NCBI GenBank assembly: GCA_964391965.1
Contig: CAYMOC010000002.1
Location: forward strand, 16,915 to 80,914
Length of the DNA stretch: 64,000 bases
From: an uncultured Thermoplasmatales archaeon
GTDB taxonomy: Archaea > Thermoplasmatota > E2 > DHVEG-1
Reading direction: 5' to 3'
Below are positions 3,642 through 60,274 of this stretch, piece by piece. Within the stretch, counting starts at the first letter, position 1. Each line of letters opens with the position of its first letter. A model generated the notes under the pieces. That model was not told where the DNA came from. It saw only the letters and a program-made list of their open reading frames with translations, and did no database searches. The translations under genes were made by a program, and so were the position numbers.

Positions 3642-3768
3642 GTTGATGCTATAGTCTTAAATAGTAGTTTTTATAAAAATCAAAAAATATAAATAGTTTG
3701 AACTACAAACATAATAATAGTGAATGATGTTAACAATTATCATTATTTGCTGGGGGTATAGAAAAATA

Positions 3769-3897: not shown

Positions 3898-3910
3898 ATA
3901 GTTTGACGCT

Positions 3911-4333
3911 TCAAGAAAAAAGAGGTGATATAGATGAAAAACTTTCTTTATCAAACTCGATATTATCAGACAAAGCTTGAAGTAAACACATCCAAGAAGC
4001 AGGATGAAACAAAAGAACTAAAATAAAAATCAAAGTATGATCCGTGATAAAATCAACCATCCCTGGAGAGAAATGGTCGTCCATATACACAATAAAAAGA
4101 AGCACCCACTCAAAAAAATTTGAAACTATCAAAGCAAGAATTATAAATATAAACAAAAAACCCATAAAAAGTGGTTCTGGAGTTGCTTGATATTCCATGA
4201 AGAAATCAGTTTTTTCAACATTTACTTTAAAATCTTTACCTGAAAAATTTGGAACTGCAGAGATTGAAGAAAACATCAAAAAGATTGAAAAAAATGCCAT
4301 ACAAAAAATTAAAAATTTTTTTATTTTTTTCAT
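3911..4333 (-). CDS. hypothetical small membrane protein
   Basis: It has an N-terminal signal/TM segment and two further hydrophobic helices. I recognised no family. Confidence 0.3.
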   Translation of the reverse strand: MKKIKKFLIFCMAFFSIFLMFSSISAVPNFSGKDFKVNVEKTDFFMEYQATPEPLFMGFLFIFIILALIVSNFFEWVLLFIVYMDDHFSPGMVDFITDHTLIFILVLLFHPASWMCLLQALSDNIEFDKESFSSISPLFS

Positions 4334-31784: not shown

Positions 31785-31865
31785 GTTTATCTCTCCTTTT
31801 AAAAGCAATAACAAAAATAATTAACATACGTTAACTATATAATATTTTTCCAAAAAAAGAAAAAA

Positions 31866-34297: not shown

Positions 34298-37200
34298 TTA
34301 TTTTATAAGCTTATTAACTAACATAAATATAAGGGGAAATCTTTGTGTAAACTGATAGAGTTTAAACAAAAACGAATTCACTTCTGAAACATGAACTCCA
34401 TCTATAACTGTTTGAGTGATACTGTTACCATTTAAATCAATTGCATTTGTTCTGAAAGAAAGTTTTGTATCATCTACTACAGAAATTTCTGCAATCCATC
34501 TATTTTCTGAAGTGGGAATTAAAGAAGTATTTTTCCAGGTTTTTCCGTTATCAGCAGAATGCTGCAAATTTAATTTTAACAAAGAACTTTCATCTTGGAC
34601 TTCCATTACCAATTGTATCTTATTATCTTTGGTAATAACTCTATTGTACAAATTATTGTTTAAACATCTAAGATAAACATCCGGAGGATTTGAATCTTTT
34701 GAAAGATTAGCAAAACTTTCAATTTTCGTAATAATTTTTGATGAAATTGAAAGATTTAAGTAACTTTCCGCTATGATTTCAAATTTAGAGGTATCCTTGA
34801 AACTAAAATAATCGTCCAGTTCTTCAGTTATGACATTATCATACAATACATTTCCATCTTGAATAATTGTCCAAATTGTTCTATCAACACCCGAAAAAAC
34901 ATTGTTACCATGTGCATCTTCTAAAATTGTATCAGTTAAAGTAATATAATTATTAGTTTCATTAAGTTTATTTTTGGATATTCTCAGGCCAGATTTAAAA
35001 GGATGTTCTCCAAATACTTTCGTAGGATTGCTATTTTTTCCGTAGCTTTCAATATTAAGCGACATAAAAGAGATACTTTTATTCTCATACATTCCAATTG
35101 CAGCATCGATATATTTAACTGGCTCAGCTTGAAGAAATACATTTATTTTATAAGGTGAAGGCATCGTAATTAATTTTGGTATCAAATCAATTGGATTCAT
35201 AAAATAAAATCCAAAAATATTGGTCAATTCATAGTCTTCTACAAAAGGAAACAGACCCCAATTTACAATACCCTCTTTGATCTGAGGAGTTTTAAGTATT
35301 GTTTCTCTTTTTATGAAGTTATTATAATCCGGTTTAAATGTTGTATCTTCTTTTATCCCTTGTTGGTTAAATCTTACAACATAAAAACTTGGCATTTTTG
35401 TTTCATGACTTAAATACCACATATAATCCTTGAACAATCTTAACTTTGGATGAAATTGGTAATTTAATGTCATGTTAAATTTCTCATTTGGAGAAATCCT
35501 AAAATCACCATCATAAAAAGTACTGCCAAATCCCGCCCTGTCAATACCAATACGATTATAACAAACAATTTGATTGATTCTTCCTGGATTAAAATCTACT
35601 TTTACTGTATTTTCTGAATCCACTATTATTCTACAATCATCGATTATACTGAGATCTTCTTTTAATAAAATATTTGTTTCTACTTTATTAGAAATAAAAT
35701 CATCCAGTTTTTTTGAGAAGGACTCACAAGAGTAGATATGATAAACACCATCTGGTAAATAAAAAACACTATTTAAACTACCTATTTCCGTCTCATTTTT
35801 ACCCATTTTTAAATACGTATAATAAGAGAAACCATACCAGTTATTTTCCTCAGAAAAAATCATTGTATAAGCAGTATAAATTCCAAAAAGTTTTATTTCA
35901 TCTTTATTCTTAAAAGGAGTAGAAATATTAATTTTATTTAAACCACTAATTCCAAACATTACATTATAACTGTCATTTAAATCAGAGGTTATCGATATTC
36001 GTCCATAATAGATTTTTTTAGGTATATTAGTTGTGTTAACTGTTAACTTTATAGATCTCTTGCATCCTGCAGGAATTATTAACTCAGTTTCATTTAATTT
36101 CACAAAATCAAATATGTTACCATGAATATCATATAATGATAATTTTAGACTTACTTCATGATCAACTATTTGGTTAAGATTTTCAATGTAAAATATTTCT
36201 TCTTTTGTAATAAACTCTGTAAACACTCCAAAATTGATAAATGAGTTTGAGATATGTAAATCAGAACTAACCGCCGAAGAAACATTTAATCTTCCAGCAC
36301 CCTCCTGATAAGCATTATAACCCAACGGATTTGCAGTTGAGGTTAACGCATCTTTAACATCAGAAACATTCCAATCTGGATGTGCCTGCATAACTAGACT
36401 AGCAGCACCTGCTACATGTGGACAAGCCATACTAGTACCAGAATAAGTCACATATCCCTCACTAAAAGCATCTGCTGCAGTAATCCTATAACCCGGAGCA
36501 ACAAGATCAGGTTTCATAAGATGATTAAAAGACGGTCCTTTACCGCTAAAATATGCTAACTCATCATTTTTTGTACTTGCACCAACAGATATTACATCAT
36601 TAGTACTAACAATTGGATTCATAGTATAATATCCAGCGCTTCCATCGTTTCCCGAGGCGACTACCACCAAAACATTATTCTCAATTGCATTGTTAATTGC
36701 TTTTTCTAAAGGATTTTCTGTAACACTACTAAATAATGTACTCGGGCCTAGACTCATACTTACAATATCTGCTTCATCTCCAGTATTTGAAATATTATCC
36801 GGCCCATAAGCAGCATATTCAATTCCAGAAATAATCCAAGAAATATAACCTCCGTCTTTACCTAATACTTTAACGTTCCATAGTTTTGCTTTTGGAGCAA
36901 TGCCAGTATAACGATAATCTGAGGCGGCACCAGTTCCTGCTGCTATACTAGCACAATGTGTACCATGACCAACAACATCCTCTTCAGTTTCATTATACTT
37001 GTTTTCCCTGGAGGGTATGCATAACTTATTTTCAACTACCTTTGGGTCATGTGTTAAAGGATTATCGTCTAAATCATCAAGATCAGGATGAGAACTATTT
37101 ATGCCTGTATCCAGAATGGCAATTTCGATATTTTCTCCATCAAATCCATAGTTATGAGCCAAATCCGCCCCTACAATTGGAACGCTTTCATCTAAACAAA

Positions 37201-37864
37201 CATCTACTTTTCTATCTAACCATATTTTATTTATATTATTATCTGAAATTAACGATTCAACTTCAAAATCAGGTTCTTTTATAGAGATTTTTGAGGCGAC
37301 TAAATTTGCAATACTATAATAATTACGAGACATCGTATTTTCTTTTATCAGCCTATCAGTTTTAAGTAAAGAAGTATCATCTAAAAAAGAGGATCTGCAA
37401 ATATTATTTACCTCGCTTCGACTATCTTTCAACTCTATAATAACAGGTATATAATCTAATTTATAATATTCATTTTCAATTAAATAATCAATGTTAAAAA
37501 ATTCAATATCGATTTTTTCCAAATCTATATTCTTTGGAATTAAATAATTATTATTTTTGATTTTTAATTCATGAAAATTATTGAGATCTTCTATTTGATC
37601 TGAGGGAAATATTATTGGTTTTTTATCTACATTTTCAATTTGTTTAACTAAAAAACGATCACCAGATATTAACATTAAATCTTGTGTGTCTCCAGATTTA
37701 TCCGATTGATAGTTATTATCAATCAAATAGTTATTATTATTCATTTTATAATTGGTAAAAATTTTCTTCCCCGATATACTACTAACATTATTTGTCATTA
37801 GAAGATTAAAACCAGCTAAAAATAAGATGCTTACTAATACAATAGATATGAGTTCTTTTTTCAT
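34298..37864 (-). CDS. secreted subtilisin-like (S8) serine protease with very long C-terminal extension
   Basis: The D/H/S triad motifs are AILDTGI, HGTHCAS and GTSMACPHVAG. A signal peptide follows the ATG at 37864. Confidence 0.7.
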   Translation of the reverse strand: MKKELISIVLVSILFLAGFNLLMTNNVSSISGKKIFTNYKMNNNNYLIDNNYQSDKSGDTQDLMLISGDRFLVKQIENVDKKPIIFPSDQIEDLNNFHELKIKNNNYLIPKNIDLEKIDIEFFNIDYLIENEYYKLDYIPVIIELKDSRSEVNNICRSSFLDDTSLLKTDRLIKENTMSRNYYSIANLVASKISIKEPDFEVESLISDNNINKIWLDRKVDVCLDESVPIVGADLAHNYGFDGENIEIAILDTGINSSHPDLDDLDDNPLTHDPKVVENKLCIPSRENKYNETEEDVVGHGTHCASIAAGTGAASDYRYTGIAPKAKLWNVKVLGKDGGYISWIISGIEYAAYGPDNISNTGDEADIVSMSLGPSTLFSSVTENPLEKAINNAIENNVLVVVASGNDGSAGYYTMNPIVSTNDVISVGASTKNDELAYFSGKGPSFNHLMKPDLVAPGYRITAADAFSEGYVTYSGTSMACPHVAGAASLVMQAHPDWNVSDVKDALTSTANPLGYNAYQEGAGRLNVSSAVSSDLHISNSFINFGVFTEFITKEEIFYIENLNQIVDHEVSLKLSLYDIHGNIFDFVKLNETELIIPAGCKRSIKLTVNTTNIPKKIYYGRISITSDLNDSYNVMFGISGLNKINISTPFKNKDEIKLFGIYTAYTMIFSEENNWYGFSYYTYLKMGKNETEIGSLNSVFYLPDGVYHIYSCESFSKKLDDFISNKVETNILLKEDLSIIDDCRIIVDSENTVKVDFNPGRINQIVCYNRIGIDRAGFGSTFYDGDFRISPNEKFNMTLNYQFHPKLRLFKDYMWYLSHETKMPSFYVVRFNQQGIKEDTTFKPDYNNFIKRETILKTPQIKEGIVNWGLFPFVEDYELTNIFGFYFMNPIDLIPKLITMPSPYKINVFLQAEPVKYIDAAIGMYENKSISFMSLNIESYGKNSNPTKVFGEHPFKSGLRISKNKLNETNNYITLTDTILEDAHGNNVFSGVDRTIWTIIQDGNVLYDNVITEELDDYFSFKDTSKFEIIAESYLNLSISSKIITKIESFANLSKDSNPPDVYLRCLNNNLYNRVITKDNKIQLVMEVQDESSLLKLNLQHSADNGKTWKNTSLIPTSENRWIAEISVVDDTKLSFRTNAIDLNGNSITQTVIDGVHVSEVNSFLFKLYQFTQRFPLIFMLVNKLIK

Positions 37865-37937
37865 TTTATCCAAACCAAATTTTTTATTTGTTTGTTTATA
37901 TAAATTTTCATATATAAATTTTTCCTTATATAAAAAA

Positions 37938-38846
37938 TTAATTAATGTTTTCAAAATTTGCACTATAAAATGACAAAAAAACTACAACAAAAAACCCTGC
38001 AATTATTGAAAAAAAGGTAAAAAATACATTCGAAGGATTATCAAGTATAATCTTACCAGGGGAACGAAGAGCACCTACCATCAAACCAATAACAAAACAT
38101 AAAGTAGCTGTATGATACTTTTTAAGAAGAAAAGACAAAACTCGAGAAAAAGAAAGTAAACCAACTGCTCCACCAGCAATATATAATACTGCATAGGGAA
38201 GATCAGTGAAATCTAAAGTCGCGATTTTTTTTAAAACATTTATCATAAAACTATACTGACCAAGAACAAGAAGAATAAAAGCACCAGACACACCTGGCAG
38301 TATCATAGCACAAAAAGAAATGAAACCAGCAAGAAAAATAACTATAAAAGAATGGGTGGTATTTATTTGTTCTAAACCTACAACCAGAAAACCAACTAAA
38401 AACCCAATTAAAACAAAAAAAAGAGACCTAAAAGTAATATTTTTCTTAACCGAATGATAAACAAAAAAAGCAGAAGCAAGAATTAAACCAAGAAAAAAAG
38501 CATAAGTATAATTCTTAAAATTAATTATCAAATAATCCATAAGATGAGCAAGAGATAAAAAAGCAATAAAAATACCAAATGCTAACGGAATTAGTAAAGC
38601 AAAATCTATTTTTAAAAAATTTTCACAAGCTTTTTTAAAATATTTTCGTTTATAGAAACCTTTAAAAAAATAAAAAACAAACTTCAAATCTATAGCTCGG
38701 ATAGCATAAACCAGTCTTTCATAAATACCAGTTATAAGAGCAATTGTTCCACCAGAAACACCAGGGATTATATCAGCACTACCCATGAATAATCCTTTTA
38801 GAAAAATCAGTAATGCCTCAAACTTTGTGTTTTTTGTTTTTTCCAA
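37938..38846 (-). CDS. DUF368-family polytopic membrane protein
   Basis: Two repeats carry a PGVSGxT motif (BacA-like PGxSRSGxT) and there are about 8 TM helices. Confidence 0.45.
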   Translation of the reverse strand: MEKTKNTKFEALLIFLKGLFMGSADIIPGVSGGTIALITGIYERLVYAIRAIDLKFVFYFFKGFYKRKYFKKACENFLKIDFALLIPLAFGIFIAFLSLAHLMDYLIINFKNYTYAFFLGLILASAFFVYHSVKKNITFRSLFFVLIGFLVGFLVVGLEQINTTHSFIVIFLAGFISFCAMILPGVSGAFILLVLGQYSFMINVLKKIATLDFTDLPYAVLYIAGGAVGLLSFSRVLSFLLKKYHTATLCFVIGLMVGALRSPGKIILDNPSNVFFTFFSIIAGFFVVVFLSFYSANFENIN

Positions 38847-40852: not shown

Positions 40853-43800
40853 TTAGTCTTCATCTCTTGACATCAATATGTTTTCTGTTTGAGTCATTGG
40901 TTCATTATCTTCAGAAACAACTTCAAGTGTTCCAATATAGGTATAATTAACTGTATCATTTCCAAATTTAACTGTTTGATTTATAGATACATTATATGAA
41001 CCGGGTTTCAACTCTAGATAATACTGACCGTTTTTATCAGAGGTTATTGTTTTTGATGCTGCTGTGTTATTAACAACTGATTCGTTTTTATCAAAATCAA
41101 TCTTTATGTTACCAATGTTTGAACCATTAATTTTGTCCTTTGTTTCACCACTTACATTGACTGTATGTTTTGTAAGAGAGATATCTAAAGAACTTGTAGA
41201 TGCTGTATCTATTTGTCCATCATAGGAATACACCAAAGCTTTACCCTCTTCTGTATAGCTTCGAATGGTTATATTATAAGAAGCATCATTATTTAATTCT
41301 ACAGTGAACTCTCCGTTTTCATCACTAGTTGGATCATCGGGTGATTTAGCAGGGTTATCCTCTGCTGATTTATCTATCGAGAAATCAATTTCTATATCAT
41401 CAACAGGTTGATTGTTAAATTCAACGTTTCCTGTGAAAGTTAAAGATTCTTTGGTTAATGAAATATTTTGACTTGTTCCATCAGAAGCAGAATCTATATC
41501 ACCTGAACCTGTGTAAACAACTACATCACCTTCGGTGTAATTAACAGATATATTGTAGTAACCTTCAGGTGTTAATTCAACCAGATAGTATCCATCTGAA
41601 TCTGTTGTTGGATTAAATGGTTTTAACGCTGAGTTATTTTCAATTGATTCATCGATTTCAAAATCAAGAGCGATACCTGATTTTTCTATAACGTTTGAGC
41701 TTTTATCAACTATATAACCAGTTATTGTAGCGGAATGTTTCTCAGTTAGTTCTATGTCTTTATCATTGATTTCTGTTTCACTTTTATCAATTGTAAAACC
41801 ACTTTCATTATAAGTGTAAACTAAAACATCTCCTTCTTTATGACTTATCGAAATATTATATACTCCAGGTATCAAATCAAACTTTTCATCAGTTTCTCCA
41901 TTTAATTCATTTGTATATTCGCCATTTAAGTTAGTAATAGCAGTTTTTGCAACTGCAGTATTATTAACAGGATCCTCAACAGACAGATCTGGTGAAAACT
42001 CAATCTGTATTTCTTTATCTTCAACATCTTCACCATCGTATTCAACAGAACCACTTACTTCAACAGGTGCAAGACCAACTGAAATATTATAAGTCAAGGT
42101 CTCATTTTCCTGAGGGAAAATGTATTCCTCTGCAGCATATTCAGTAGTCTCAACTTTTAAAGTGTAGTTGTTAAGATTTAAACCATTAATTGAACCAGGT
42201 ATAAGATTTTTAAAAGAAAAATCTCCTTCGGAATCAGTTGTATCATTTTTAATTTCAGAAGCAACAGTGAACATGTCAGTTGTTTTTTTATGAAGTAAAC
42301 GAACAGTCACATCTTTTAGTTCTTCACCAGAATCATATTTTCCATTCTGGTTTTCATCATAAAATAATTTACCTTCAACATTGGCTGGTTTAGCTTTTGA
42401 AATATTAAGTGTTTTAGTACCAGAATGTAAATTCACAAGATTTCCATAAATGTTGAAATCACCTTCTGATGCATATAGTTGATATCTTCCAGGGAATAAA
42501 TCTGAAACACCATAAAAACCTGATTCTGAAGAAGTATTATCGCCTCGATCGCCTCCCGCAGTATCAGGTTGACCATTTTGATCTATTTTAGTTATTTCTA
42601 TAAGATTCACAGATACATTAGAAAGAACTTTATCAGAGGAAGAATCAAAACTACTATTATCATCCTTATTTTCAAAAACATAACCTTCAACACCTGCAGG
42701 TTTAATTGTAATATTTCCAAGATCTATTCTTCCTTTATCATCAGTAAGTCGCATAGCTTCATCCTCTGAAACTTGAACAGTTATATTTTTAAGGATGAAA
42801 CCACCAACATTTTCATTTTCAATGGATGCAGGAATACCAGAACCAATGGTTGGATAAATATTGAATAATTGTGACATATACTCAGGATAACGAATAACAC
42901 TGAGTTTTATTTCCCCGCCACCAGTTAAAGCACTAAAGTTACCATCAGAAATATTAATCTGATCATGTGTTACTGGAATAACAACTTCATCTGTGTAACT
43001 AAGATTTTTCTGAACCAGCATCATCACAGGTTTATTCATATATTCACCTTGATAAACAAGTGAACCGTTGACTGTGGCACCCTCGTAATATTTAGCAATG
43101 ACAACTGGAGCGAAACCTTGATATTTGGAAATATCAGAAACATACTCTGCATAGAAATGCTTCATACCCTGACAAGGGAGTTGAAAATTTGGAAACTGAC
43201 TTTGTTGTTGCCCTTGCATCTGTGACATTTGACTTTGCCTATATCCAAAGAATGTTTTGTAAAACATAGTATTAAAATATGGATCTTGATAATCCTGACT
43301 AGTGTCAGTAACTTGATAATATTGCCTTTCATTTTCAGGTAATTCTAGAATTTCTTTGGCATACTGATCGAACCTACGTTCAGGTTCTCCTTGTGGATTC
43401 AAAACTTCTCCTTTGTAATTGATTTTAACAAATTCATCACTTGGTACTTGTTGAGTCATAATAAGACTTTTATCAGCAAGAAATGCAAATATACTAAAAA
43501 TTTGTCTATCATAGATTTCTGTAGCATAATAACGAATACTTAACCCCGTAGTTTCCTGAATATCATGATAGAACCACACGGTTTCATCCAGAGATAGACC
43601 AGTTGTGTTATTATTTACCAAATCAACAATATCATGATAATAAGCATTTTCAGGCCATTGAGCACCTACTTTTAGAAATCTTTCATCAATATTTTGAATA
43701 TACTGATGATACTCAGGATAAATGTCTTCACCGTATGATGGAGACTCAGTAGGCTGTTCTAACCAAGAAGAGATCTTTTCTGCATTATCCGGGAAATATT

Positions 43801-45790
43801 TATTTAAAACATCATACACATCATCAGAAACTTTGTTTTTGTTTTTTGAAACATCGCCTTCCATCAAACGTATCGCTAAAACAGCTATAGCTTCTTTTTC
43901 ACTAGTAGCAGTATGAAAATTACTGGCAGGAGGAATACCATCCTGGAAATTGTCAGCAACAGTAGGATGTTCACCAATTGCAACCTCATAGAAACCATAA
44001 TCCCACCAGGATATAACAGCAGGACGATCTACTGGATCTGAAATATCTGTATCTTGTTGTTTCAACCATTGAAAAGCTTCAGTCCAATATCTTTCTTTTC
44101 CAACACCTAAACCAAATGGATGAGAAACTTCTTCACCCCAAAACATTTCCTTCCATGTGCCATCTCCATCTTCAGTTTCAGCATTAGGAATAGCAGCAGT
44201 AAAAACAGGTATAATATTAAAAATCAAAGACATAGAAACAAAAAGGATTCCCACTACATGTAAAACTTTTACACCACGTCGTATCCCATGCAAACCTCCT
44301 CCAGCATTTTTAATATCCCTAACCATACCTGGATAGTCAATTTTATCAATAATTAACCAAGTTAGAAAACCAGCAAAAATAGCTATCACCGGCGCCATAT
44401 CTGTAAGAAAACGACCAGCAATACCAGTCAACCAAACATTTACCATAAACAAGATAACCAAAAATAATAAATCATTTCTCTCATGATTTTTATAAAATTT
44501 ATAGATTACAAAAATAAAACCAGCCCAACCAAGCCAATACAAAACAGCACCGAAATTCATAACAGTATTACTAATCGGAAAAGTATTAGCCTCAGCAATA
44601 GTCAAAGAAACTTTATTAGAATAAATCCCGCCAGTACCACGAATGATTTCACTAAACTTTGAAAGCTGACCTATATATGGGACAACAGAACTAAGCTCTG
44701 GAATAAACCATAAAAAGGAAAAACCAGCACCACCTAAAATTAATATAACAGGCAATGAAAGAGTCCAAGGGATTTTTCTTCTACCCAACACATAATAGAT
44801 TAATCCAAAAATCAAGACTCCTAATATCATATAAAATGGGATTGTTGCTCTGAAACCACTCGCCCATTTTGATGCGATCACAGGCAACGAAACCATATAA
44901 CCTGTAAAAAGTATAACCAAAGGAGGCATAAACGTTTTAATATCATCTTTTCCTTTTAAAAGATCGATAAAAATTTGAACAAATGCATACAACGCAATAA
45001 CAGTATACAAGTATTCATGTTCAACCCAAACCATACTTAAACCAGCAAGAGATATTCCTCCAAGAAGAGCATAAAAAAATGATTTTGCTCTATCTTTTTC
45101 TTTAATGCTTTTTATAAGAAAAGCAAACGTTATGAAAAACAAAAGTAAGTTAAATGAATCATGATCAAAAAGAGAATAAGCTGAACCATGACCTGTACCA
45201 ACAATTGCAACAGTTAACGAAAGCCATAAAGCAGAGATTAATCCAACTTTTTTATTAAATACATCTTTTCCTATAGAATAAACTGGGAAAACAAGTAACG
45301 CTCCAAATAAAGCAGGTATAAACTGCATCGCATATCCAATTGCATCAATTTCATCCATAAACGGAGTTAACACTCTACTGAAACCAAGAGCCATCATGTT
45401 AAATAATGGAGCACGACCACCAGATCGGCCAATAGGATAATCTAGTAAGGGATCATTCTCTGAGTAAAACTGGTACGTCCCCTCATTATATGTTTCTTCA
45501 ACGATTCTCATATTATAGTAAGGGTCCGGGCCTGAAAGATAATATTTTTCTAAGCCATCTCCATCAGGATTATATGCTACACCACTTATAATGTTGAAAT
45601 AGGAATTAAAGAGTAATACTAATAAAAAGATTCCAATTAAAGCAACTCCTATCCACCAGTTTTTTTTCAGTTTAGGGATTGTGCTTTTTGGTTTTTCAAT
45701 CACTGTTTTTCTGGTGGATACATGTTTTGGTTCTTCTGAATAGGTTTTACTTTTTCTTTGTGCTCGTTTTCGCATTTTAACTTTCACCAT
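40853..45790 (-). CDS. aglB: oligosaccharyltransferase AglB/STT3 with ~700-aa C-terminal repeat extension
   Basis: It has a polytopic N-terminal domain, the WWDYG motif (ISWWDYGFYE) and an N-terminal DPYY/SGGRAPL region. C-terminal repeated beta-domains contain YNISVNYTEGDVVVYTG-like units. Confidence 0.8.
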   Translation of the reverse strand: MVKVKMRKRAQRKSKTYSEEPKHVSTRKTVIEKPKSTIPKLKKNWWIGVALIGIFLLVLLFNSYFNIISGVAYNPDGDGLEKYYLSGPDPYYNMRIVEETYNEGTYQFYSENDPLLDYPIGRSGGRAPLFNMMALGFSRVLTPFMDEIDAIGYAMQFIPALFGALLVFPVYSIGKDVFNKKVGLISALWLSLTVAIVGTGHGSAYSLFDHDSFNLLLFFITFAFLIKSIKEKDRAKSFFYALLGGISLAGLSMVWVEHEYLYTVIALYAFVQIFIDLLKGKDDIKTFMPPLVILFTGYMVSLPVIASKWASGFRATIPFYMILGVLIFGLIYYVLGRRKIPWTLSLPVILILGGAGFSFLWFIPELSSVVPYIGQLSKFSEIIRGTGGIYSNKVSLTIAEANTFPISNTVMNFGAVLYWLGWAGFIFVIYKFYKNHERNDLLFLVILFMVNVWLTGIAGRFLTDMAPVIAIFAGFLTWLIIDKIDYPGMVRDIKNAGGGLHGIRRGVKVLHVVGILFVSMSLIFNIIPVFTAAIPNAETEDGDGTWKEMFWGEEVSHPFGLGVGKERYWTEAFQWLKQQDTDISDPVDRPAVISWWDYGFYEVAIGEHPTVADNFQDGIPPASNFHTATSEKEAIAVLAIRLMEGDVSKNKNKVSDDVYDVLNKYFPDNAEKISSWLEQPTESPSYGEDIYPEYHQYIQNIDERFLKVGAQWPENAYYHDIVDLVNNNTTGLSLDETVWFYHDIQETTGLSIRYYATEIYDRQIFSIFAFLADKSLIMTQQVPSDEFVKINYKGEVLNPQGEPERRFDQYAKEILELPENERQYYQVTDTSQDYQDPYFNTMFYKTFFGYRQSQMSQMQGQQQSQFPNFQLPCQGMKHFYAEYVSDISKYQGFAPVVIAKYYEGATVNGSLVYQGEYMNKPVMMLVQKNLSYTDEVVIPVTHDQINISDGNFSALTGGGEIKLSVIRYPEYMSQLFNIYPTIGSGIPASIENENVGGFILKNITVQVSEDEAMRLTDDKGRIDLGNITIKPAGVEGYVFENKDDNSSFDSSSDKVLSNVSVNLIEITKIDQNGQPDTAGGDRGDNTSSESGFYGVSDLFPGRYQLYASEGDFNIYGNLVNLHSGTKTLNISKAKPANVEGKLFYDENQNGKYDSGEELKDVTVRLLHKKTTDMFTVASEIKNDTTDSEGDFSFKNLIPGSINGLNLNNYTLKVETTEYAAEEYIFPQENETLTYNISVGLAPVEVSGSVEYDGEDVEDKEIQIEFSPDLSVEDPVNNTAVAKTAITNLNGEYTNELNGETDEKFDLIPGVYNISISHKEGDVLVYTYNESGFTIDKSETEINDKDIELTEKHSATITGYIVDKSSNVIEKSGIALDFEIDESIENNSALKPFNPTTDSDGYYLVELTPEGYYNISVNYTEGDVVVYTGSGDIDSASDGTSQNISLTKESLTFTGNVEFNNQPVDDIEIDFSIDKSAEDNPAKSPDDPTSDENGEFTVELNNDASYNITIRSYTEEGKALVYSYDGQIDTASTSSLDISLTKHTVNVSGETKDKINGSNIGNIKIDFDKNESVVNNTAASKTITSDKNGQYYLELKPGSYNVSINQTVKFGNDTVNYTYIGTLEVVSEDNEPMTQTENILMSRDED

Positions 45791-46839: not shown

Positions 46840-49029
46840 ATGAAATACAATCGTACTATTATTTTTATATTAATAATCGGATTAATTTTTTCTTCTGTAG
46901 CTGTTAATATTGACACGATAAATGCAGATGATGAAAATGCACAAGACAATGTGGATACTGAATTCAGAATTACAATAAATTCTCCCACTTATTTTTTGAT
47001 TAATGCAACAACGATTGTTGAACATATAACCCTACCAGGCAGCGGTAAAACATATAACACCTCTCAGATTGAATCAGGGAGTGCACCTCTCGAGGCTATT
47101 AAAGGACGCATCCATGAAGTTATAAATGAAACAATAAGAAATACATTCCCAGGATGTAAAATAAATCCGAATCAGGATTTACCAGCATATACTAATGGTT
47201 CTTTTAACTCCGATTTTTTTATAACTGTAACAACAGAGTTTTTTTCAATGAACGAAAAAGCAGATTTAGCTAAAATGCTAAAAGGAATGCTAAATATGGG
47301 TGCAGATATAGTATACGATTTTAATCTATACGCAACAAACGGATGGCAGAACACTTTTGAATTTTTTTCTGAATCAGAATACACAATCATCAGCTCCAGC
47401 AGAAAAAAAACTGTTGATGGAAATATACAAAACGAAAATAACAAAAAAATTAAGATTACAAACATGTCAAAATCATCAAGTCTAGAAGAAAAAATCACAT
47501 TTGATTTTAAGATTGATTCAACACAAAATAAAAGAAATTCTCTAGAGATTACAATGACAATAAAATCAATCGCAATATCTATTTATAACCTTCCTGATTA
47601 TGTCGACAAATTGAGTTTTATAACTGCTGATGGAATAAGACTTTTTATAGAAAACAAATTTAACAATTTCACATGGAGCAATATAAAAACCACTACAATC
47701 AATCCTCTAATAAAAGACACGTCATCAATAATTGAAAATTCATCTCTAAATCAAACACTGAACCTCGAATTTGAATGGGATACAAACTCTACAGAAGTTT
47801 CACCGGGCTATGATTTAAATAATATGGATAGTCAACCACCTATAAAAACAACATTTATAGACGACTATGTTAACTTAAGCATATGTAATATCTCTGATAA
47901 AGCATTTTATGGCATAATAAATTCAGGAGGCAAAGTAAATCTTAATTCCGAGGATATCAATTTTGGTGATGGTTTAAACAAATTATCATATGAATATGAG
48001 AATTCAATATTATTCCCAAAAAATATGACATTAAGTAATCAAAATCCATTTACATGGAAACAATCAGAGGATTTTAACGGAAACTTTGAATCGAAAGATG
48101 CAAAGGATTACAATAAAGAAAATAAAGAAACAGTTATTGAAATTGACCTTCAAAATCCTCGGTTAAATGTTTTGAGTTTTATAACAGGTAATACCGAGCT
48201 TGAATTTGATGCAATAGTTACAGAGAGTAGAAAATATTATGTTTCAAATATATCAAATGAATCAGAATATTTCCCAATTCCAGAAAAAATTTCTCTGGAT
48301 TATCTTTGCGCTGATGCCTTTAGATTATGTGTAAATGAAAATGTTTTCAGTGATGAAAACATGACTAGTTTTTTACAGAATGAAAAAAATATTTTCAAAC
48401 AAAGAACAAATGATTTATGGCCGGGTTTAAAAATCGGTAAACAAGCAAAAATAGATAAAACAACGTTTGAAAAATCCTTAAATTCCGAAGAAGTAAATAT
48501 TTTTGATATGGACGAATATCCTGCTATAAATGTTGACAGTAACGCTAAAATAGTTAAGCCTATCAATTTTGATTTAGGTCTTCTACCGCCGTCTTTTAAA
48601 ATAGAAAAACAAACATTTAAAATAGAAAGTTTAGAGGATCAAAATATAACGTATAGGATTATATTCCCAGATGGCATAAATGTAAAGGTTAGAAATAGTT
48701 TAATTAAAGATGCGGATATACAAAAAACAAAAGATGGAAGAACAATAATTGAATTTAGTTTCAATAGTTCAGAAGGAGGTTTGCCTGCTAATCTCATAGA
48801 TTGCGAACTTGAGACGTCCGGTGTTTTTATCCTTGGCATGTTTCTACCATGTATACTCACATTTATTGTGGCAATTATTCTTGTATTAGTAATTATTTTT
48901 GTTAAAAGAAAAAAAGGTGGAAGATTCAGAGATTTAATACCACGTAGATCTAAAAAAGAAAAATTTGAAGAAGACAGTTACGAAGATGAAGAATTCTATG
49001 TTCCGCCACCACCGGAAGGAAAAAAATAG
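46840..49029 (+). CDS. type-I membrane surface protein, hypothetical
   Basis: It has a signal peptide, a large Asn/Ser-rich ectodomain, a C-terminal TM helix and a basic tail with PPPP. Confidence 0.45.
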   Translation: MKYNRTIIFILIIGLIFSSVAVNIDTINADDENAQDNVDTEFRITINSPTYFLINATTIVEHITLPGSGKTYNTSQIESGSAPLEAIKGRIHEVINETIRNTFPGCKINPNQDLPAYTNGSFNSDFFITVTTEFFSMNEKADLAKMLKGMLNMGADIVYDFNLYATNGWQNTFEFFSESEYTIISSSRKKTVDGNIQNENNKKIKITNMSKSSSLEEKITFDFKIDSTQNKRNSLEITMTIKSIAISIYNLPDYVDKLSFITADGIRLFIENKFNNFTWSNIKTTTINPLIKDTSSIIENSSLNQTLNLEFEWDTNSTEVSPGYDLNNMDSQPPIKTTFIDDYVNLSICNISDKAFYGIINSGGKVNLNSEDINFGDGLNKLSYEYENSILFPKNMTLSNQNPFTWKQSEDFNGNFESKDAKDYNKENKETVIEIDLQNPRLNVLSFITGNTELEFDAIVTESRKYYVSNISNESEYFPIPEKISLDYLCADAFRLCVNENVFSDENMTSFLQNEKNIFKQRTNDLWPGLKIGKQAKIDKTTFEKSLNSEEVNIFDMDEYPAINVDSNAKIVKPINFDLGLLPPSFKIEKQTFKIESLEDQNITYRIIFPDGINVKVRNSLIKDADIQKTKDGRTIIEFSFNSSEGGLPANLIDCELETSGVFILGMFLPCILTFIVAIILVLVIIFVKRKKGGRFRDLIPRRSKKEKFEEDSYEDEEFYVPPPPEGKK

Positions 49030-51291: not shown

Positions 51292-52101
51292 GTGAAGAAA
51301 AATATAGTTGTGATGCTAATATTGATGCTGTTAGTAGGCTTAGTTTTTAGTGGTTGCATTGGAACTGATGATGAAAATAATGATGAATCTGATAATGTAG
51401 ACAACGATGTTGATGGCAATGATGGAAAAATGACAGGAACGGCCAACTATTCCGGAACATGGTCAGGTTCAATAGGTGGAGAATCCTATAGCGGAACATG
51501 GGAATTCGATGTCGACTTCGATGAAGGAACAGTAACCGGCTCGTTTTCAGGCGATGGCACAGGAGATATAACTGGAACAGTTTCCGATAGAGAAATACAG
51601 GCATCTGGGAACGCAGCCTTCGGCACCGTTGAATGGTCCGGTGATTTTACATCTAACGGCGAAGAAGTTTCAGGCACCTGGGAACTCGCTGGGGACTATG
51701 CCTACTCTGGATCTGGCACATGGAGTGGAGAATTAGGCGAAATAGAGAACGGAAATGACGGTGACAACGAGGATAATGGCGATGAAAATGGTCTGCCAGA
51801 CGAAGATCAAGTCGATGGAGATGAACCAATAGCCCGATATCCGGATTCAATTATGCTGGAGCATTCCAATTTCACATCTGAGGAGGGGCAGATAATAGAA
51901 ATCAATTATGGAACTACTGATAGTCTCGATGATGTTGTAGCCTGGTACAAACAAGAGTTAGGGGGACCTAACGCAGAAGAGAGCGAAGACGGTGAAACAA
52001 CACTTCACTATATGTTTGAAGAAGAGGAATATGCTAAGATAACAGTCTCAACAGATGAATATACTCTAATCGAACTCCGATATGGGGTTTCAGAGGGATA
52101 A
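51292..52101 (+). CDS. acidic secreted lipoprotein-like protein with GTW/SGTW repeats
   Basis: It has a signal peptide with Cys (VFSGCIG) and internal repeats. Its GC content is higher than the neighbouring genes. Confidence 0.45.
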   Translation: MKKNIVVMLILMLLVGLVFSGCIGTDDENNDESDNVDNDVDGNDGKMTGTANYSGTWSGSIGGESYSGTWEFDVDFDEGTVTGSFSGDGTGDITGTVSDREIQASGNAAFGTVEWSGDFTSNGEEVSGTWELAGDYAYSGSGTWSGELGEIENGNDGDNEDNGDENGLPDEDQVDGDEPIARYPDSIMLEHSNFTSEEGQIIEINYGTTDSLDDVVAWYKQELGGPNAEESEDGETTLHYMFEEEEYAKITVSTDEYTLIELRYGVSEG

Positions 52102-52168: not shown

Positions 52169-53032
52169 TTATAGTTTTTTCTTTTTTAAAATTATAATCG
52201 CTACAGCTAAAGCGACAACAAATGCAAATAGTTCAAAACCTGGTATCCCGCCGTTATCATCTTCTTCAGTTTGTTCGTAAACTGTTCCAGTCATTTCATT
52301 CATAATACTAATTGAATCCTGATTCCATTGAGTTAAATCCACATCGCTAAAAGCTCTAACATATAATCGCACATCTTTCAGAATTTTATGTGTATCTTTT
52401 TCAGGTATTTCAAAAGGAATTTTACTACTGTTAAGTGGTCCATTCACATATTGTCTACCTCTAAATGTAGACCAATCATCATCCCCATTAGGACCTGTTC
52501 CAATAAACGTTAATTCAAAAGAGTAATCAGCTAAATCTAAACCTGATTGTTTAAACGGACTCATCCAAACATTTGCATGTTCAGCTGAGTCATCTTCATA
52601 GTAATTAACTAGAATATAGTAACATGCATAAACATCTCCAGATGTTGAACCATCAAAAGTCATGTCAAACTCTACATTATTATCCTTATTTGAATAATCT
52701 AAATCAAAATTTTTTATAGAAACAGAAATACTCTCATCAGTTGGTTTTTCTGAACCAGGTTCATTGTTAGAATCTTGATGATAAATTTTATAGTTTTCAT
52801 CAGATTCTTCAGGTGGTTCAATGTTTTCAATGTCTTCAGCTAAACCAAAAAGATTTTTAAAAAAATTGATTGTTTTATTTACAATTGGGATTTTTTTAAG
52901 GAATTCAAGAATTGGTCCATCACGATTATTTTTAAAAAAAACGTTTGTGTTATCTGTTTTTGCGTTTACAACCGTTACAAACATTGTAGTAAACAATAGC
53001 ATTGCTATTAAAAAAATTAATATTTTTTTCAT
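52169..53032 (-). CDS. PGF-CTERM sorting-signal surface protein
   Basis: It has a signal peptide and a C-terminal GGIPGFELFAFVVALAVAIIILKKKK. Confidence 0.5.
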   Translation of the reverse strand: MKKILIFLIAMLLFTTMFVTVVNAKTDNTNVFFKNNRDGPILEFLKKIPIVNKTINFFKNLFGLAEDIENIEPPEESDENYKIYHQDSNNEPGSEKPTDESISVSIKNFDLDYSNKDNNVEFDMTFDGSTSGDVYACYYILVNYYEDDSAEHANVWMSPFKQSGLDLADYSFELTFIGTGPNGDDDWSTFRGRQYVNGPLNSSKIPFEIPEKDTHKILKDVRLYVRAFSDVDLTQWNQDSISIMNEMTGTVYEQTEEDDNGGIPGFELFAFVVALAVAIIILKKKKL

Positions 53033-53146
53033 ACAAATTGCCCCATATATTAATATTTTTATACAAATCACTATTGTAATATTTCTTATATAATTATCGC
53101 TGTTTTTTTAAGTAAAAAAATAAAACTTAGATAAAAAAGAGAGGGG

Positions 53147-53890
53147 TTATTTTCTTTTTCTTAAAAAGATTAAAGCCAACCCAATTGCAGCTAATAATGA
53201 AATTATTTCAAAACCAGGTATGCTTCCTCCGCCATTATCACCGTCGTCATTTGAAGAAGATGCAGAAGGATACATGCTTCCAGCCCATTCACCAGGCCCC
53301 AAAGGTGCAGCATCAACATAGGTTTTGGTTTCAAAATCTGTATTCTGCGGATTTTCTGTATCTATATTTGTATAATCAAAATTTGTTACAACCTCGGTTG
53401 TCACAGCCCAGAATTCAAAAGAGGGCTCATCTGTCTGAATTTCAAATGACGCAGTAAAAGTCTTATCTCCATTTGATAAAGGATTAGATATAGTTCCTAT
53501 ATTTTGAGAACCACCCTGAATTGTTTGATATGTCGCTGTACCGGAGGTTGTATAAGTAGCAGTATGCCAATAATCTGAATTATCAGGATCGCCATAATAT
53601 AATACATATGAGCAGATAGAACTTTGATTGAAAGACGGTATTTGTTCTTCCACAGATAAAGACATAGTAAGGTTATTACCATTTAATGAATAACTAGCTT
53701 TTATAATGTCAATATAGGGTCTATCTCCAACATTTTTTGAAGAAATTGAATAAGTATTTGCTCCAGTGTTTATTTTATAACAAAAAATATCATTTTTTTC
53801 ATCAGTTATCTCTTTTGCAGAAACTGTACATGTTATTAACAGCATACTAAAGATTGATATTAGAATAAATATTTTTTTAGATTTCAACAT
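53147..53890 (-). CDS. PGF-CTERM sorting-signal surface protein
   Basis: It has a signal peptide and a C-terminal GGSIPGFEIISLLAAIGLALIFLRKRK. Confidence 0.5.
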   Translation of the reverse strand: MLKSKKIFILISIFSMLLITCTVSAKEITDEKNDIFCYKINTGANTYSISSKNVGDRPYIDIIKASYSLNGNNLTMSLSVEEQIPSFNQSSICSYVLYYGDPDNSDYWHTATYTTSGTATYQTIQGGSQNIGTISNPLSNGDKTFTASFEIQTDEPSFEFWAVTTEVVTNFDYTNIDTENPQNTDFETKTYVDAAPLGPGEWAGSMYPSASSSNDDGDNGGGSIPGFEIISLLAAIGLALIFLRKRK

Positions 53891-53982
53891 TTTTTTTTCA
53901 ACATCCATAATATCAAAAAAGTTATTCCTTATTAGTTTAACTAAAAATTATAATGAATAAAAAAATAGAAAGGATTAAAAAT

Positions 53983-55248
53983 TTATTTTTTGTTTTTTCT
54001 TTTTAAGAGTATTAAGGCGATACCAATTGCTGCAATTAAAAAAACAGTTTCAAAACCAGGTATGCCGGACCCTGAACCGTCATCATCTGATGAATTTGAA
54101 CCATCATCTGATGAATTTGAACCATTTAGAGTATTAATGCTATATGAGTCTTGGTTCCATAGTGTTCCATTAGCATCTTTATAAGCTCTAACAAAAACTT
54201 CAGTTTTTGATAATGTTTTATTGGAATCTACATCCTCTGAGACAAGAGGAGAGGTTTCGGAATACGAGGTGTCAAGTGTACCTTTTATTTTGTATTCCCA
54301 GGTCTGCCAATTATCAGATAAGGATTTGAAATGATAAGCTTCAAACTCAGTTTCTCCCATAAAAGATCCAATTGCACTAAGATAAGAGGTCATATCGAAA
54401 CCAGACGTCCAGACATATTGTTCATCTGTTGTTCCATCACTGTAGTAATTAACAAGACAGATTTTACAATGATCAACCCCGCTTGTGGTTCCTGAAATTC
54501 TCATATCAACAGTACTTTTATTATCACTAGAGCTAAAATCATAATTTGCTGAATCAATTGAAACTTGAATAGATGTATCTGTAGGTGTTTCACTAGAAGG
54601 ATCTGTTGTGGTTTCAGTATAATTCATCATATCATCCATATCGTTAGGAATATCACCCCAACCATTATCAGAGGGGTCATCCTCTTCTTCCGGCTCTGTT
54701 CCATCATCTCCACTTGAATCTTGATAGTATGGTGCAAACATATCTGGTGCGTAATCATAATATGCCTCTGTGGCATCCACTGATTCAGATGCCATGCCAT
54801 ATATGTCAAAACTATCTTCAGGATGGTTAATATCAAAGATTGCAGTAAATGTATCTCCCGAAACAGGATCTGTTAACTGCCCCATTTCACCACTATACTT
54901 ATTGTTTCCTATCCACATCCCGCTGCCAGCTGAATAAGTTGCATAATATTGACCGGATGAATTTTCAAGATAAATGATATAAGTATGATACATGTCATTT
55001 TGTATCTCACCTTCTACGGTTAAAGATGCAGTGACTGTAGAACCTGAAATTTCATAACTAACACTTGTCACATCAACATTGTCTCTTGAACCTGAATATT
55101 GACGATAGGCCATACCTGAACCCCCAAGTTCATAAACCCAAACATCATCAGTATCATCATTTACAGTTGTTCCTGAGGCGCCAACACTCAAAAGAGTTAT
55201 TGCAATTAAACCTGCAATTATTAGACTTGTTTTTTTTAAAAGTTTCAT
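53983..55248 (-). CDS. PGF-CTERM surface protein, two-domain fusion of the neighbouring paralogue types
   Basis: It has a signal peptide and a C-terminal SGIPGFETVFLIAAIGIALILLKRKNKK. The N-domain resembles 53147-53890 and the C-domain resembles 52169-53032. Confidence 0.5.
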   Translation of the reverse strand: MKLLKKTSLIIAGLIAITLLSVGASGTTVNDDTDDVWVYELGGSGMAYRQYSGSRDNVDVTSVSYEISGSTVTASLTVEGEIQNDMYHTYIIYLENSSGQYYATYSAGSGMWIGNNKYSGEMGQLTDPVSGDTFTAIFDINHPEDSFDIYGMASESVDATEAYYDYAPDMFAPYYQDSSGDDGTEPEEEDDPSDNGWGDIPNDMDDMMNYTETTTDPSSETPTDTSIQVSIDSANYDFSSSDNKSTVDMRISGTTSGVDHCKICLVNYYSDGTTDEQYVWTSGFDMTSYLSAIGSFMGETEFEAYHFKSLSDNWQTWEYKIKGTLDTSYSETSPLVSEDVDSNKTLSKTEVFVRAYKDANGTLWNQDSYSINTLNGSNSSDDGSNSSDDDGSGSGIPGFETVFLIAAIGIALILLKRKNKK

Positions 55249-55340
55249 ATTTTATTTCCCTCGGCCAGTCGTAAAAGGTTTATTTCTTATAAAACTATTG
55301 AAAAGTTTTCTAAAGGTCTTTTTGTTTAATTTCTTTTATA

Positions 55341-59026: not shown

Positions 59027-59209
59027 GCATTTTGTTACAATAAAAATTTTTTTTATAGCAATATTAAATCACTAACTTTTGAGACCTCACAATGATTAAT
59101 AACAATCGTTAATATATAAAATTTTTTCTCATCCAAAAAACCTAAACAAAGATAAGAGTTTATATAAAAAATAAACATTCCATCAAAATTGAGGAGAAAC
59201 AAAAAAAAA

Positions 59210-60274
59210 ATGGATGCTCCATCAATAGATACACTGATATTTGCACCACTTGCACCAATACTCTGTGTTCTATTACTATGGTTCATACAACTACTATTCA
59301 TAGAAAGCGAAAAATATCTTCTCGAAAAAATAAGGCCATTACATGAAGCTTTATTTCGTTTTACAAACTTTTTAGGCATACTCTTTCAAAACATATGCCA
59401 TGCATTAGGATACACGGTTACAAAAAGTGGGGTATCTGATTTTCATATAACAATACATTACGGCAAAGTTAAACCTAAAAGAGAAAAAACCGGTATTTTC
59501 GAATGGATATCCAATGCCTTTCTATTTGTAGGGCCTTTTTTCATACCAGCCTTTTTACTATTAACATGTCTCTTTTTCTTGATTCAGAGAGGATACGGGT
59601 TTCAGATACCTTATAACTTAGAAGGACTTGAACATACTTTTGGCGGCCAGATAATAATAGTAGGAACCAGCCTTTACGAGTTCACAGCTAAATTTTTAGG
59701 GTTTTTAGTAAACATAGATCTATTACACCCCGCGCATTTTGGGTTTTTCTTATTTATGATCATATTAGGAATGGGCATAAGGCCAATATACATTGGTGAA
59801 AAAAAAACACAAAGAGTAGACATGTTTTATGATCTAAAAAACATCTGGAATCTAATAGTTGACCACCCTCGTTATCTACTCTATTTTTTTATTTTAGCTT
59901 ACTCGTTTTTTTATATATCATATTATTTCCAAAATAACTGGTATGTCTTCATATTCTCCATATTCGGATGGCTCTCAATAATATCAATTTTCTCAATCCT
60001 TATTTCAGATATGATACTACTTTTAGTGATGAAAACAGATGAAATAAAAGGTTTAAAAAAAGCTATACCTTTCATCATAATCCCAATAATTTACATTTTG
60101 ATGCGTATAATCTTTTATTATCACCCAACAGATTACAGTAACAGCGCATCCTTGTTGGTTACATTTCTAACTACTATTCTTGTTACATATTTGCTACTCA
60201 AAAAATCTACCAATAGTTTTAAATCTAAATTAGGATTTAAAATGTTTAAAAAGAAAAAAAAGGGAGAAAAATAA
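59210..60274 (+). CDS. hypothetical polytopic membrane protein
   Basis: It has about 8 predicted TM helices. I recognised no family. Confidence 0.35.
   Translation: MDAPSIDTLIFAPLAPILCVLLLWFIQLLFIESEKYLLEKIRPLHEALFRFTNFLGILFQNICHALGYTVTKSGVSDFHITIHYGKVKPKREKTGIFEWISNAFLFVGPFFIPAFLLLTCLFFLIQRGYGFQIPYNLEGLEHTFGGQIIIVGTSLYEFTAKFLGFLVNIDLLHPAHFGFFLFMIILGMGIRPIYIGEKKTQRVDMFYDLKNIWNLIVDHPRYLLYFFILAYSFFYISYYFQNNWYVFIFSIFGWLSIISIFSILISDMILLLVMKTDEIKGLKKAIPFIIIPIIYILMRIIFYYHPTDYSNSASLLVTFLTTILVTYLLLKKSTNSFKSKLGFKMFKKKKKGEK

Follow-up and report, generated by a model that had tools for sequence, protein, structure and literature searches.

Candidate sortase-processed surface proteins with PGFE tails in a strain-variable locus of a Thermoplasmatota archaeon

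Genome analysis of the 64-kb window, i.e., the whole stretch of DNA under study, showed the presence of three neighboring genes, A, B and C, which probably (with a probability of about 0.65) encode sortase-processed surface proteins, located in a strain-variable slot and recombining at the repeat that codes for their C-terminal tails and at acidic linkers. The system is of an ordinary kind, and its parts are uncharacterised.

The three ORFs were found exactly where the sequence-only reading had placed them, as a tandem array on the minus strand. Gene A (53983..55248, minus strand) encodes a protein of 421 aa, consisting of a signal peptide, an N-type beta-sandwich, an acidic linker, a C-type beta-sandwich, a short linker and a PGFE tail; exactly this protein occurs in assemblies from both NCBI and Logan. 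Gene B (53147..53908, minus strand; 253 aa), related by BLASTP to the N-terminal half of A, encodes a signal peptide, an N-type domain, an extension and a PGFE tail. Gene C (52169..53032, minus strand), related by BLASTP to the C-terminal half of A, encodes a signal peptide, a helical region predicted with low confidence, a C-type beta-sandwich and a PGFE tail. The longest ORF of gene C, from GTG 53071, gives the 300 aa assigned to this protein earlier; its ORF coordinates held, but the length was corrected to 287 aa from ATG 53032, a start backed by the orthologue in relative L018 and by the gene calls made on identical Logan contigs. An amphipathic-helix motif of the N-terminal region of C was compared with the C-termini of S8 and C1 peptidases (E 0.027, no alignment).

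The presence of signal peptides in all three proteins was borne out by inspection, which revealed in each a basic n-region followed by a hydrophobic core and a cleavage-type site of small residues (ASG|T, VSA|K and VNA|K), and by the N-terminal helix predicted by AlphaFold2, matching the signal-like segment. Each gene is preceded by a TATA-like motif and followed by a T-run. The AT-rich motif TTATAAGAAATA, detected as repeat family D10 and by sequence inspection, is located upstream of A (55281..55298, minus strand), and its second copy, from the same repeat family, upstream of C (53080-53097); these motifs are putative promoters. A, B and C may thus represent three independently transcribed genes, the products of which would be small, acidic cell-surface proteins. 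Scanning the window with Rfam and for tRNAs found nothing. In comparison with the orthologues of a related genome, dN/dS of A, B and C was 0.15-0.34, which indicates functional genes under purifying selection; in the same analysis, dS was mosaic (0.10-0.84), and dN/dS extended over 0.15-0.57.

All three proteins terminate in the tripartite PGF-hydrophobic-basic signal that had been recognised in them: (I/S)PGFE is followed by approximately 17 hydrophobic residues, for which AlphaFold2 predicts a terminal helix directly adjoining the PGF motif, and by a cluster of K/R up to the stop codon. The candidate sorting tails are IPGFETVFLIAAIGIALILLKRKNKK in A (53986..54063, minus strand; AlphaFold2 helix at residues 400-418), IPGFEIISLLAAIGLALIFLRKRK in B (53150..53221, minus strand) and GIPGFELFAFVVALAVAIIILKKKKL in C (52172..52249, minus strand). 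The tail-coding DNA, including that of A and B, is a 73-nt direct repeat, D1, present in three copies. A search of every stop-to-stop ORF in the 64-kb window showed just these three PGFE tails.

Assignment of the tails to the PGF-CTERM class was correct as regards the tripartite PGF layout, but not as regards the class model. Against the curated cut-off of 24.5 bits for TIGR04126, the tail of B scored 10.8 bits (E 0.3), the tails of A and C gave no match at E<=10, and the whole proteins gave nothing at E<=1. The model Loki-CTERM (NF033507, cut-off 19.9 bits) is passed by all three, with 21.4-28.3 bits for the whole proteins (28.3 for A, 27.2 for B) and 26.3-33.8 bits for the tails alone (33.8 for A, 31.8 for B, 26.3 for C). 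For Heimdall-CTERM (NF045529, cut-off 24 bits), the whole proteins remain under the cut-off at 18.1-23.9 bits, B having 23.9, and the tails alone reach 23.6 (A), 28.4 (B) and 28.1 bits (C), i.e., those of B and C exceed it. The matches to both models span profile positions 1-24/26. By these profile scores, the tails are the PGFE variant named Loki-CTERM by NCBIfam, at the threshold of Heimdall-CTERM, and not classical PGF-CTERM. In a literature search, no paper naming Loki-CTERM was found.

Both models are named for Asgard archaea, but the genome relatives of the family all belong to Thermoplasmatota. The best named relatives of guaA are from Candidatus Thermoplasmatota (77-79% identity), and all 13 GTDB loci in which family members occur are assigned to Thermoplasmata or Thermoplasmatota, one of them being titled Methanobacteriota. 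Asgard origin, which the model names might imply, was ruled out by the guaA relatives and the GTDB matches; going by sequence relatives, the host is a low-GC Thermoplasmatota archaeon. The family comprises about 380-800 clusters (383 at E<=1e-10), and no viral relatives were found in a search of IMG/VR.

The evidence for processing of the tails has to be weighed against the reading that they serve type I membrane proteins as ordinary transmembrane anchors at the C-terminus, not subject to sortase-like cleavage or lipid attachment, with PGFE as an inherited helix-capping or interface feature. Consistent with such anchors are the TIGR04126 result and the existence of about 14 relatives out of 176 with a plain hydrophobic anchor in place of the PGF tail (8 of the NC-TM and 6 of the C-TM type), which indicates that the ectodomains can work with simple membrane anchoring. 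Examination of the multi-TM ORFs in the 64-kb window (UbiA, a VCA0040-like protein, an ABC-2 permease, a bPH_2 protein, AglB and one ORF without assignment) and in 18 related loci (~250 kb) revealed neither an archaeosortase nor any other protein of the exosortase family. A conserved membrane protein of 361 aa (59189-60274) showed no family match and no obvious archaeosortase features, and a literature search retrieved no paper tying an archaeosortase to Thermoplasmatota. However, in proteins that otherwise share only 20-30% identity, P, G and F are near-invariant, and their spacing to the C-terminus is fixed: of 172 family members, 141 have retained PGF, located 22-28 residues before the end, and in 116 of these 141 the next residue is E. 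Such conservation exceeds the need of a plain membrane anchor. Moreover, the tails score above the cut-off of a curated model for sorting signals, and their tripartite layout with the motif adjoining the helix is a hallmark of the sortase type; in signals cut by membrane-embedded sortases, the motif adjoins the helix without a spacer (bioRxiv 10.1101/2023.06.07.544157), as it does here. Simple transmembrane anchoring is thus considered unlikely, and sortase-type processing is preferred.

Since the search of the 64-kb window and of ~250 kb of related loci yielded no archaeosortase, processing and lipidation are inferred by analogy. ArtA of Haloferax processes PGF-CTERM proteins in this manner, removing the helix and attaching a lipid. 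Each of the proteins would be exported by the Sec system via its N-terminal signal peptide and held in the membrane by the C-terminal helix. An archaeosortase-type intramembrane cysteine transpeptidase may then recognise PGF(E) adjoining the helix, whereupon the helix and the basic tail would be removed and a membrane lipid attached. The mature product would consist of one or two beta-sandwich ectodomains on disordered acidic stalks, with the C-type domain, if present, always membrane-proximal and the N-type domain distal.

Similar to substrates of the PGF-CTERM/ArtA system, A-C combine a Sec signal peptide, P-G-F adjoining a hydrophobic helix and a basic cluster with Ig-like beta-sandwich ectodomains and with a linker, acidic or rich in Ser/Thr, that precedes the signal. 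They differ from these substrates in failing TIGR04126, in being much smaller than S-layer glycoproteins, in their Thermoplasmatota host and in the lack of ArtA in the 64-kb window and ~250 kb of related loci. Haloarchaeal tails are of the PGFG type, unlike the PGFE of A-C. A short C-terminal signature, a helix and a basic tail, together with modular, often repetitive ectodomains, are also common to the LPXTG/sortase and PEP-CTERM/exosortase systems, but the signature and the enzyme family are different there; in LPXTG proteins, a spacer precedes the helix, and attachment is to the cell wall, not to lipid (bioRxiv 10.1101/2023.06.07.544157).

The ectodomains are represented by two types of beta-sandwich, confidently predicted by AlphaFold on disordered acidic linkers (AlphaFold2 mean pLDDT of 83 for A; pLDDT of 78 for C). 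In A, the N-type domain occupies residues 25-167 (54748..55176, minus strand), the disordered acidic linker residues 168-209 (54622..54747, minus strand; pLDDT 44-66), and the C-type domain, containing the motifs ETPTDTSI, GTTSGVDHC, W-TWEY and VRA-D-WNQ, residues 210-372 (54133..54621, minus strand). The C-type domain of C comprises residues 103-242 (52307-52726). The Ser/Asp-rich linker directly before the tail of A contains a perfect 21-nt tandem duplication (GSNSSDD x2; 54081..54122, minus strand; repeat family D8, 100% identity).

No Pfam domain was found in the three whole proteins at E<=1, and comparison of both beta-sandwiches with PDB folds yielded no specific relative, the folds being generic and Ig-like. 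The N- and C-type domains are two uncharacterised beta-sandwich modules. It is improbable that the N-type domain is a carbohydrate-binding module similar to CBM9/DOMON, by which the proteins would tether polysaccharide or glycoprotein substrates on the surface of a peptidase-secreting heterotroph.

The composition of A from a B-type N-domain and a C-type C-domain, proposed previously, was supported by pairwise BLASTP: A(2-201) aligned with B at 27% identity (E 6e-16), and A(210-418) with C at 34% identity (E 2e-31). With such E-values, the mosaic structure of A is real, far beyond chance. It is not, however, a fusion unique to this array: the N-C architecture is widespread, being found in 35 of 176 family members. 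The description of the three proteins as paralogues holds for A-B and A-C, which share domains, but the common part of B and C is the tail only, their alignment being confined to a tail region of 47 residues (E 6e-08). Homology between the N- and C-type domains was considered and rejected (hhalign probability of 24% over 27 columns); as no homology of the two domain types is detectable, B and C are 'paralogues' through the tail alone. In the family, the architectures N, N-C, C and N-N occur, and C before N was never seen. The view of a modular family, evolving by gain and loss of domains and genes, is upheld by BLASTP, by these architectures and by the variable loci of relatives.

In relatives, the slot, which is flanked by the housekeeping genes Endo_dU and PTH2, contains from one to four family genes. 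A single N-only gene is present in relatives L019-L021; L018 has an N-C gene and C, and B is absent; in L017, the slot holds an N-only gene, an IS240 transposase, B, C and a further family gene, D. The N-only allele of L017 lacks a 615-bp segment, the left breakpoint of which is located in the acidic linker of A. The tail DNA of C past the PGFE codons matches the tail of D, the fourth gene of L017, and not that of C of L017. Identity switches at ATACCnGGTTTTGAA: upstream of it, C matches L017-C at 65/84 and L017-D at 44/90 positions, downstream at 35/72 and 67/72, respectively. The body of B is 91-100% identical to that of L017, but its tail only 56-76%. The tail of A in L018 resembles an A/B hybrid, which is only suggestive because the sequence is short and 77% identical. 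At the IPGFE codons, two clear indel/identity breakpoints and one weaker case are thus found. Recombination in the ~73-nt repeat that encodes the tails, the crossovers being located at the IPGFE codons, may give rise to new gene combinations; the low-complexity acidic linkers would serve as further recombination sites, and an IS element may contribute in one relative.

A comparable slot is island 1 of Haloquadratum walsbyi, a strain-variable cell-surface glycoprotein locus with homologous recombination, mobile elements and purifying selection (PMC4535781). Variable surface genes, recombination with mobile elements and purifying selection are likewise characteristic of the slot between Endo_dU and PTH2, but it is much smaller, with 1-4 small genes between housekeeping genes, and its junctions map specifically to sorting-signal codons and acidic linkers. 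Tentatively, and at a little under even odds, the PGFE-signal DNA and the acidic linkers may form a built-in recombination joint, by which ectodomain cassettes are swapped, deleted or fused on a constant tail; strain-specific repertoires would then be drawn from two lineage-restricted, hitherto undescribed beta-sandwich domain families, and the Loki/Heimdall-type signal and its enzyme would belong to a wider archaeal system beyond Asgard.

For the ectodomains, the most likely role is recognition or adhesion at the cell surface, where selection would favor diversity between strains. That the proteins are instead subunits of an S-layer lattice, with the C-type domain as the membrane-proximal lattice, appears very improbable. 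PGF-type signals do anchor the S-layer glycoprotein of Haloferax (bioRxiv 10.1101/2023.06.07.544157), the build is Ig-like, the gene of the oligosaccharyltransferase AglB is located ~7 kb away, and the slot in relatives always contains at least one family gene. But the proteins are small (253-421 aa), the conserved gene of the slot encodes a 248-aa single-domain protein on an acidic stalk of ~50 residues, and copy number and architecture differ between close strains. In addition, the halobacterial S-layer glycoprotein model TIGR04216 gave 10.6 bits against a cut-off of 400 bits, in the tail only; no S-layer protein from the PDB is among the fold matches; and the observed numbers of N-glycosylation sequons (8, 2 and 2) show no enrichment over those expected (4.9, 3.7 and 2.9). 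An enrichment that would tie the proteins to the nearby AglB was thus not seen.

Uncultured Thermoplasmatota abound in the ocean and in sediments; to our knowledge, almost nothing is known of their cell envelopes. The locus does not overturn current understanding, but offers a set of candidate proteins displayed on the cell surface, and two ectodomain families not yet modelled, as targets for proteomics, structure determination and cell capture. A sorting signal named for Asgard archaea by NCBI is the prevalent tail in a Thermoplasmatota family, which bears on annotation and on finding the cognate sortase. Breakpoints located on sorting-signal codons suggest a concrete, checkable mechanism for diversification of the surface repertoire between strains, for which pressure of viruses or grazers is a plausible driver.

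Three open reading frames of 421, 253 and 300 aa follow one another on the minus strand at 52169-55248; the window is AT-rich (GC 29-37%), and its tRNA and Rfam scans gave no matches. Gene A (53983-55248) encodes a protein of 421 aa, gene B (53147-53908) a protein of 253 aa, and gene C (52169-53032; longest open reading frame 300 aa) a protein of 287 aa starting at ATG 53032, as placed by gene callers in three identical Logan contigs; the C orthologue of a relative likewise opens with MKKILIF. Each gene has its own AT-rich upstream motif and T-run terminator-like sequence. The N-termini of the three proteins are composed of a basic and then a hydrophobic, signal-like segment, and their C-termini (tails) of (I/S)PGFE followed by some 17 hydrophobic residues and then a cluster of K/R; no further genuine tails of the PGFE type were found among all stop-to-stop open reading frames of the window. 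In BLASTP comparisons, residues 2-201 of A align with B (E 6e-16, 27% identity) and residues 210-418 with C (E 2e-31, 34% identity), and the alignment of B with C is confined to the tail. The sequence-only reading had described three tandem genes with signal-like N-termini and C-terminal PGF tails, the 421-aa protein being a mosaic of the other two; this is confirmed throughout, save for the start codon of C, the gene lying where it had been placed but encoding 287 aa, not 300.

The structure of A predicted by AlphaFold2 from a 60-sequence alignment (mean pLDDT 83) comprises an N-terminal helix (residues 3-21), a confident N-type beta-sandwich (25-167), a disordered acidic linker (approximately 168-209), a second confident beta-sandwich of C-type (210-372), a disordered Ser/Asp linker and a terminal helix (400-418). 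The same C-type sandwich is predicted in protein C (pLDDT 78) at residues 103-242, between a low-confidence helical region and a terminal helix. No Pfam or NCBIfam model matched either domain, and homology between the N- and C-types, at a profile-profile probability of 24% over 27 columns, was rejected as not real.

When 1.84 billion representatives were searched with a profile, 816 clusters matched at E<=1e-3, of which 383 reached E<=1e-10 and 75 reached E<=1e-30. Domain-level HMMs assigned the architectures N-PGF (74 members), N-C-PGF (35), C-PGF (21), N-N-PGF (8), N-C with a plain anchor (8) and C with a plain anchor (6) among 176 retrieved members, in which the C-before-N order never occurs; PGF occurs at a distance of 22-28 residues from the C-terminus in 141/172 members, 116 of which have E as the next residue. 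Thus, the three commonest architectures of the family occur in A, B and C; the family is lineage-restricted and modular, as the proposal of a modular family had anticipated, and the N-C fusion is not peculiar to this array. No viral relatives were found in IMG/VR contigs. One member, WP_455392653.1 (679 aa), contains an N-type domain, thrombospondin-type Asp-rich repeats, a C-type domain and an LPGFE tail, and its RefSeq record bears the name of the rumen bacterium [Eubacterium] cellulosolvens; as the tail is of archaeal type and the record that of a Firmicute, contamination by rumen Thermoplasmatota, or horizontal transfer, is suggested.

All three tails are assigned by NCBIfam to Loki-CTERM (NF033507; cut-off 19.9 bits), with 21.4-28.3 bits for whole proteins and 26.3-33.8 bits for tails alone, and lie at the Heimdall-CTERM threshold (NF045529). 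With TIGR04126, the model for classical PGF-CTERM (cut-off 24.5 bits), the best score was 10.8 bits, for one tail only. The tails therefore carry PGFE as a variant of the PGF-type signal, so that the tripartite PGF layout claimed earlier stands and the classical assignment does not. The best named relatives of the window GMP synthase are all 'Candidatus Thermoplasmatota archaeon' (77-79% identity), and relatives of the C-type domain come from Thermoplasmata or Thermoplasmatota MAGs in 13/13 species-representative genomes, one titled Methanobacteriota; an Asgard host is ruled out by these relatives, and the Loki and Heimdall names of the models therefore do not mirror the host.

The layout of the tails is textbook tripartite, with the motif abutting the helix, an arrangement typical of signals that ArtA and other membrane-embedded sortases cleave (Haft, bioRxiv 10.1101/2023.06.07.544157). 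An archaeosortase-like enzyme would cleave at PGF(E) and attach a lipid anchor. No archaeosortase is encoded in the 64-kb window, where the multi-TM open reading frames correspond to UbiA, a VCA0040-like protein, an ABC-2 permease, a bPH_2 protein, AglB and one protein without assignment, and no archaeosortase-like enzyme in approximately 250 kb of related loci. Because family members with plain anchors exist, whose ectodomains can work by simple membrane insertion, the alternative that the tails are mere transmembrane anchors stays alive, though it is rather improbable. The earlier interpretation as a whole is partly supported. The window also encodes (59189-60274, plus strand) a conserved protein of 361 aa that has 6-7 transmembrane segments but no match in Pfam or NCBIfam, and that is syntenic with a bPH_2 membrane protein in three related loci (L018-L020). 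In Haloferax, archaetidylserine-synthase-type enzymes provide lipid for ArtA substrates; in locus L009 of one Thermoplasmata MAG, an archaetidylserine-synthase-like gene (3560-4201, minus strand), scoring under the cut-offs of the general and 'protein sorting system' models, lies just upstream of an N-C family gene, a single case which may be coincidence.

A giant AglB/STT3 oligosaccharyltransferase (40853-45790, minus strand, 1645 aa) is extended at the C-terminus by a long stretch of Ig-like, CarboxypepD_reg and SdrD_B-like domains and keeps its synteny in relatives (1621-1634 aa). A secreted S8 subtilase (34298-37963, minus strand, 1221 aa) and a secreted papain-family C1 peptidase with a PKD domain (30219-31814, minus strand, 531 aa) have hydrophobic or amphipathic C-terminal tails that lack PGF. 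Between the tail of the C1 peptidase, ILNIFKNFVKNLFDI, and IVNKTINFFKNLFGL, part of the helical region near the N-terminus of protein C, there is a faint resemblance (BLASTP, E 0.027), which may be chance in an AT-rich genome. Anchors other than the PGFE tail occur in two further proteins predicted to lie at the surface, in a 370-aa PKD-domain protein with a plain C-terminal helix (5270-6382, plus strand) and in a 729-aa protein without family match (46840-49029, plus strand), which has a helix and a charged predicted cytoplasmic tail of about 45 residues and is fast-diverging (63% amino-acid identity to L017, dN/dS 0.26).

The array occupies a slot between the Endo_dU and PTH2 genes, the contents of which differ among relatives. 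Loci L019, L020 and L021 contain one N-only gene (248 aa); L018 contains N-C (402 aa) and C-only (289 aa) genes and lacks B; L017, from the closest relative (guaA 95% identical), contains an N-only allele of A (254 aa), an IS240-type transposase, B (252 aa), C (301 aa), a fourth, N-type gene D (241 aa) and a lipoprotein gene; the window contains A, B, C and the lipoprotein gene. The IS240-family DDE transposase (L017 944-1498, minus strand), located between the A allele and B, shows mobile-element activity within the slot. The lipoprotein gene (51292-52101, plus strand), adjoining C convergently, encodes a very acidic protein of 269 aa with the lipobox LVFSG|C and weak, sub-threshold likeness to TbpB, fHbp and Slam-dependent surface-lipoprotein beta-barrels (E 1.6e-5 to 3e-3); unlike its neighbours, it is nearly identical to the L017 orthologue at synonymous sites (dN/dS 0.57).

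Relative to the L017 N-only allele, where a 123-bp acidic linker replaces the linker and C-type domain of A (615 bp), both breakpoints fall within low-complexity acidic sequence; the linker before the A tail, of the same character, carries a perfect 21-nt tandem duplication (54081-54122, GSNSSDD twice), which suggests replication slippage in such linkers. Up to the ATACCnGGTTTTGAA codons (IPGFE), window C is closer to L017 C (65/84) than to D (44/90), and past them it carries the L017 D tail and downstream flank (67/72 versus 35/72 to L017 C), and the window is without approximately 820 bp present in L017, namely C's own tail and the D body. The B bodies of the window and L017 are 91-100% identical, dropping to 56-76% from the PGFE codons across the tail and the B-C spacer; over its first 27 nt, the L017 B tail matches the window A tail at 26/27. 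The L018 A tail, at 77% overall identity, is only suggestive of an A-5'/B-3' hybrid. The DNA of the three window tails constitutes a direct repeat of 73 nt, the core of which (15 nt) is near-identical. The dS values are mosaic (A N-domain 0.84, B 0.18, C 0.68, lipoprotein 0.10, PTH2 0.73) and dN/dS stays within 0.15-0.57 across the compared genes, which indicates that lineages have recombined with one another and that selection on the products is purifying. Cell-wall-associated variable islands are a known archaeal pattern, described in Haloquadratum (PMC4535781); the slot has the same pattern and adds junctions on sorting-signal codons.

The features established for A, B and C are export-type N-termini, beta-sandwiches carried by acidic, disordered stalks, a conserved C-terminal signal of sortase type and strain-level reshuffling. 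An S-layer role, one of the functions proposed earlier, is unlikely, as the proteins are small, differ in copy number and architecture among close strains, show no sequon enrichment and do not match the S-layer glycoprotein model; a binding or adhesion role is a plausible candidate. Archaeal C-terminally sorted surface proteins are an already known class, of which A, B and C are new, uncharacterised members; in a Thermoplasmatota host, they bear a signal of the PGFE (Loki/Heimdall) type, and they occupy a small surface-protein slot prone to recombination.
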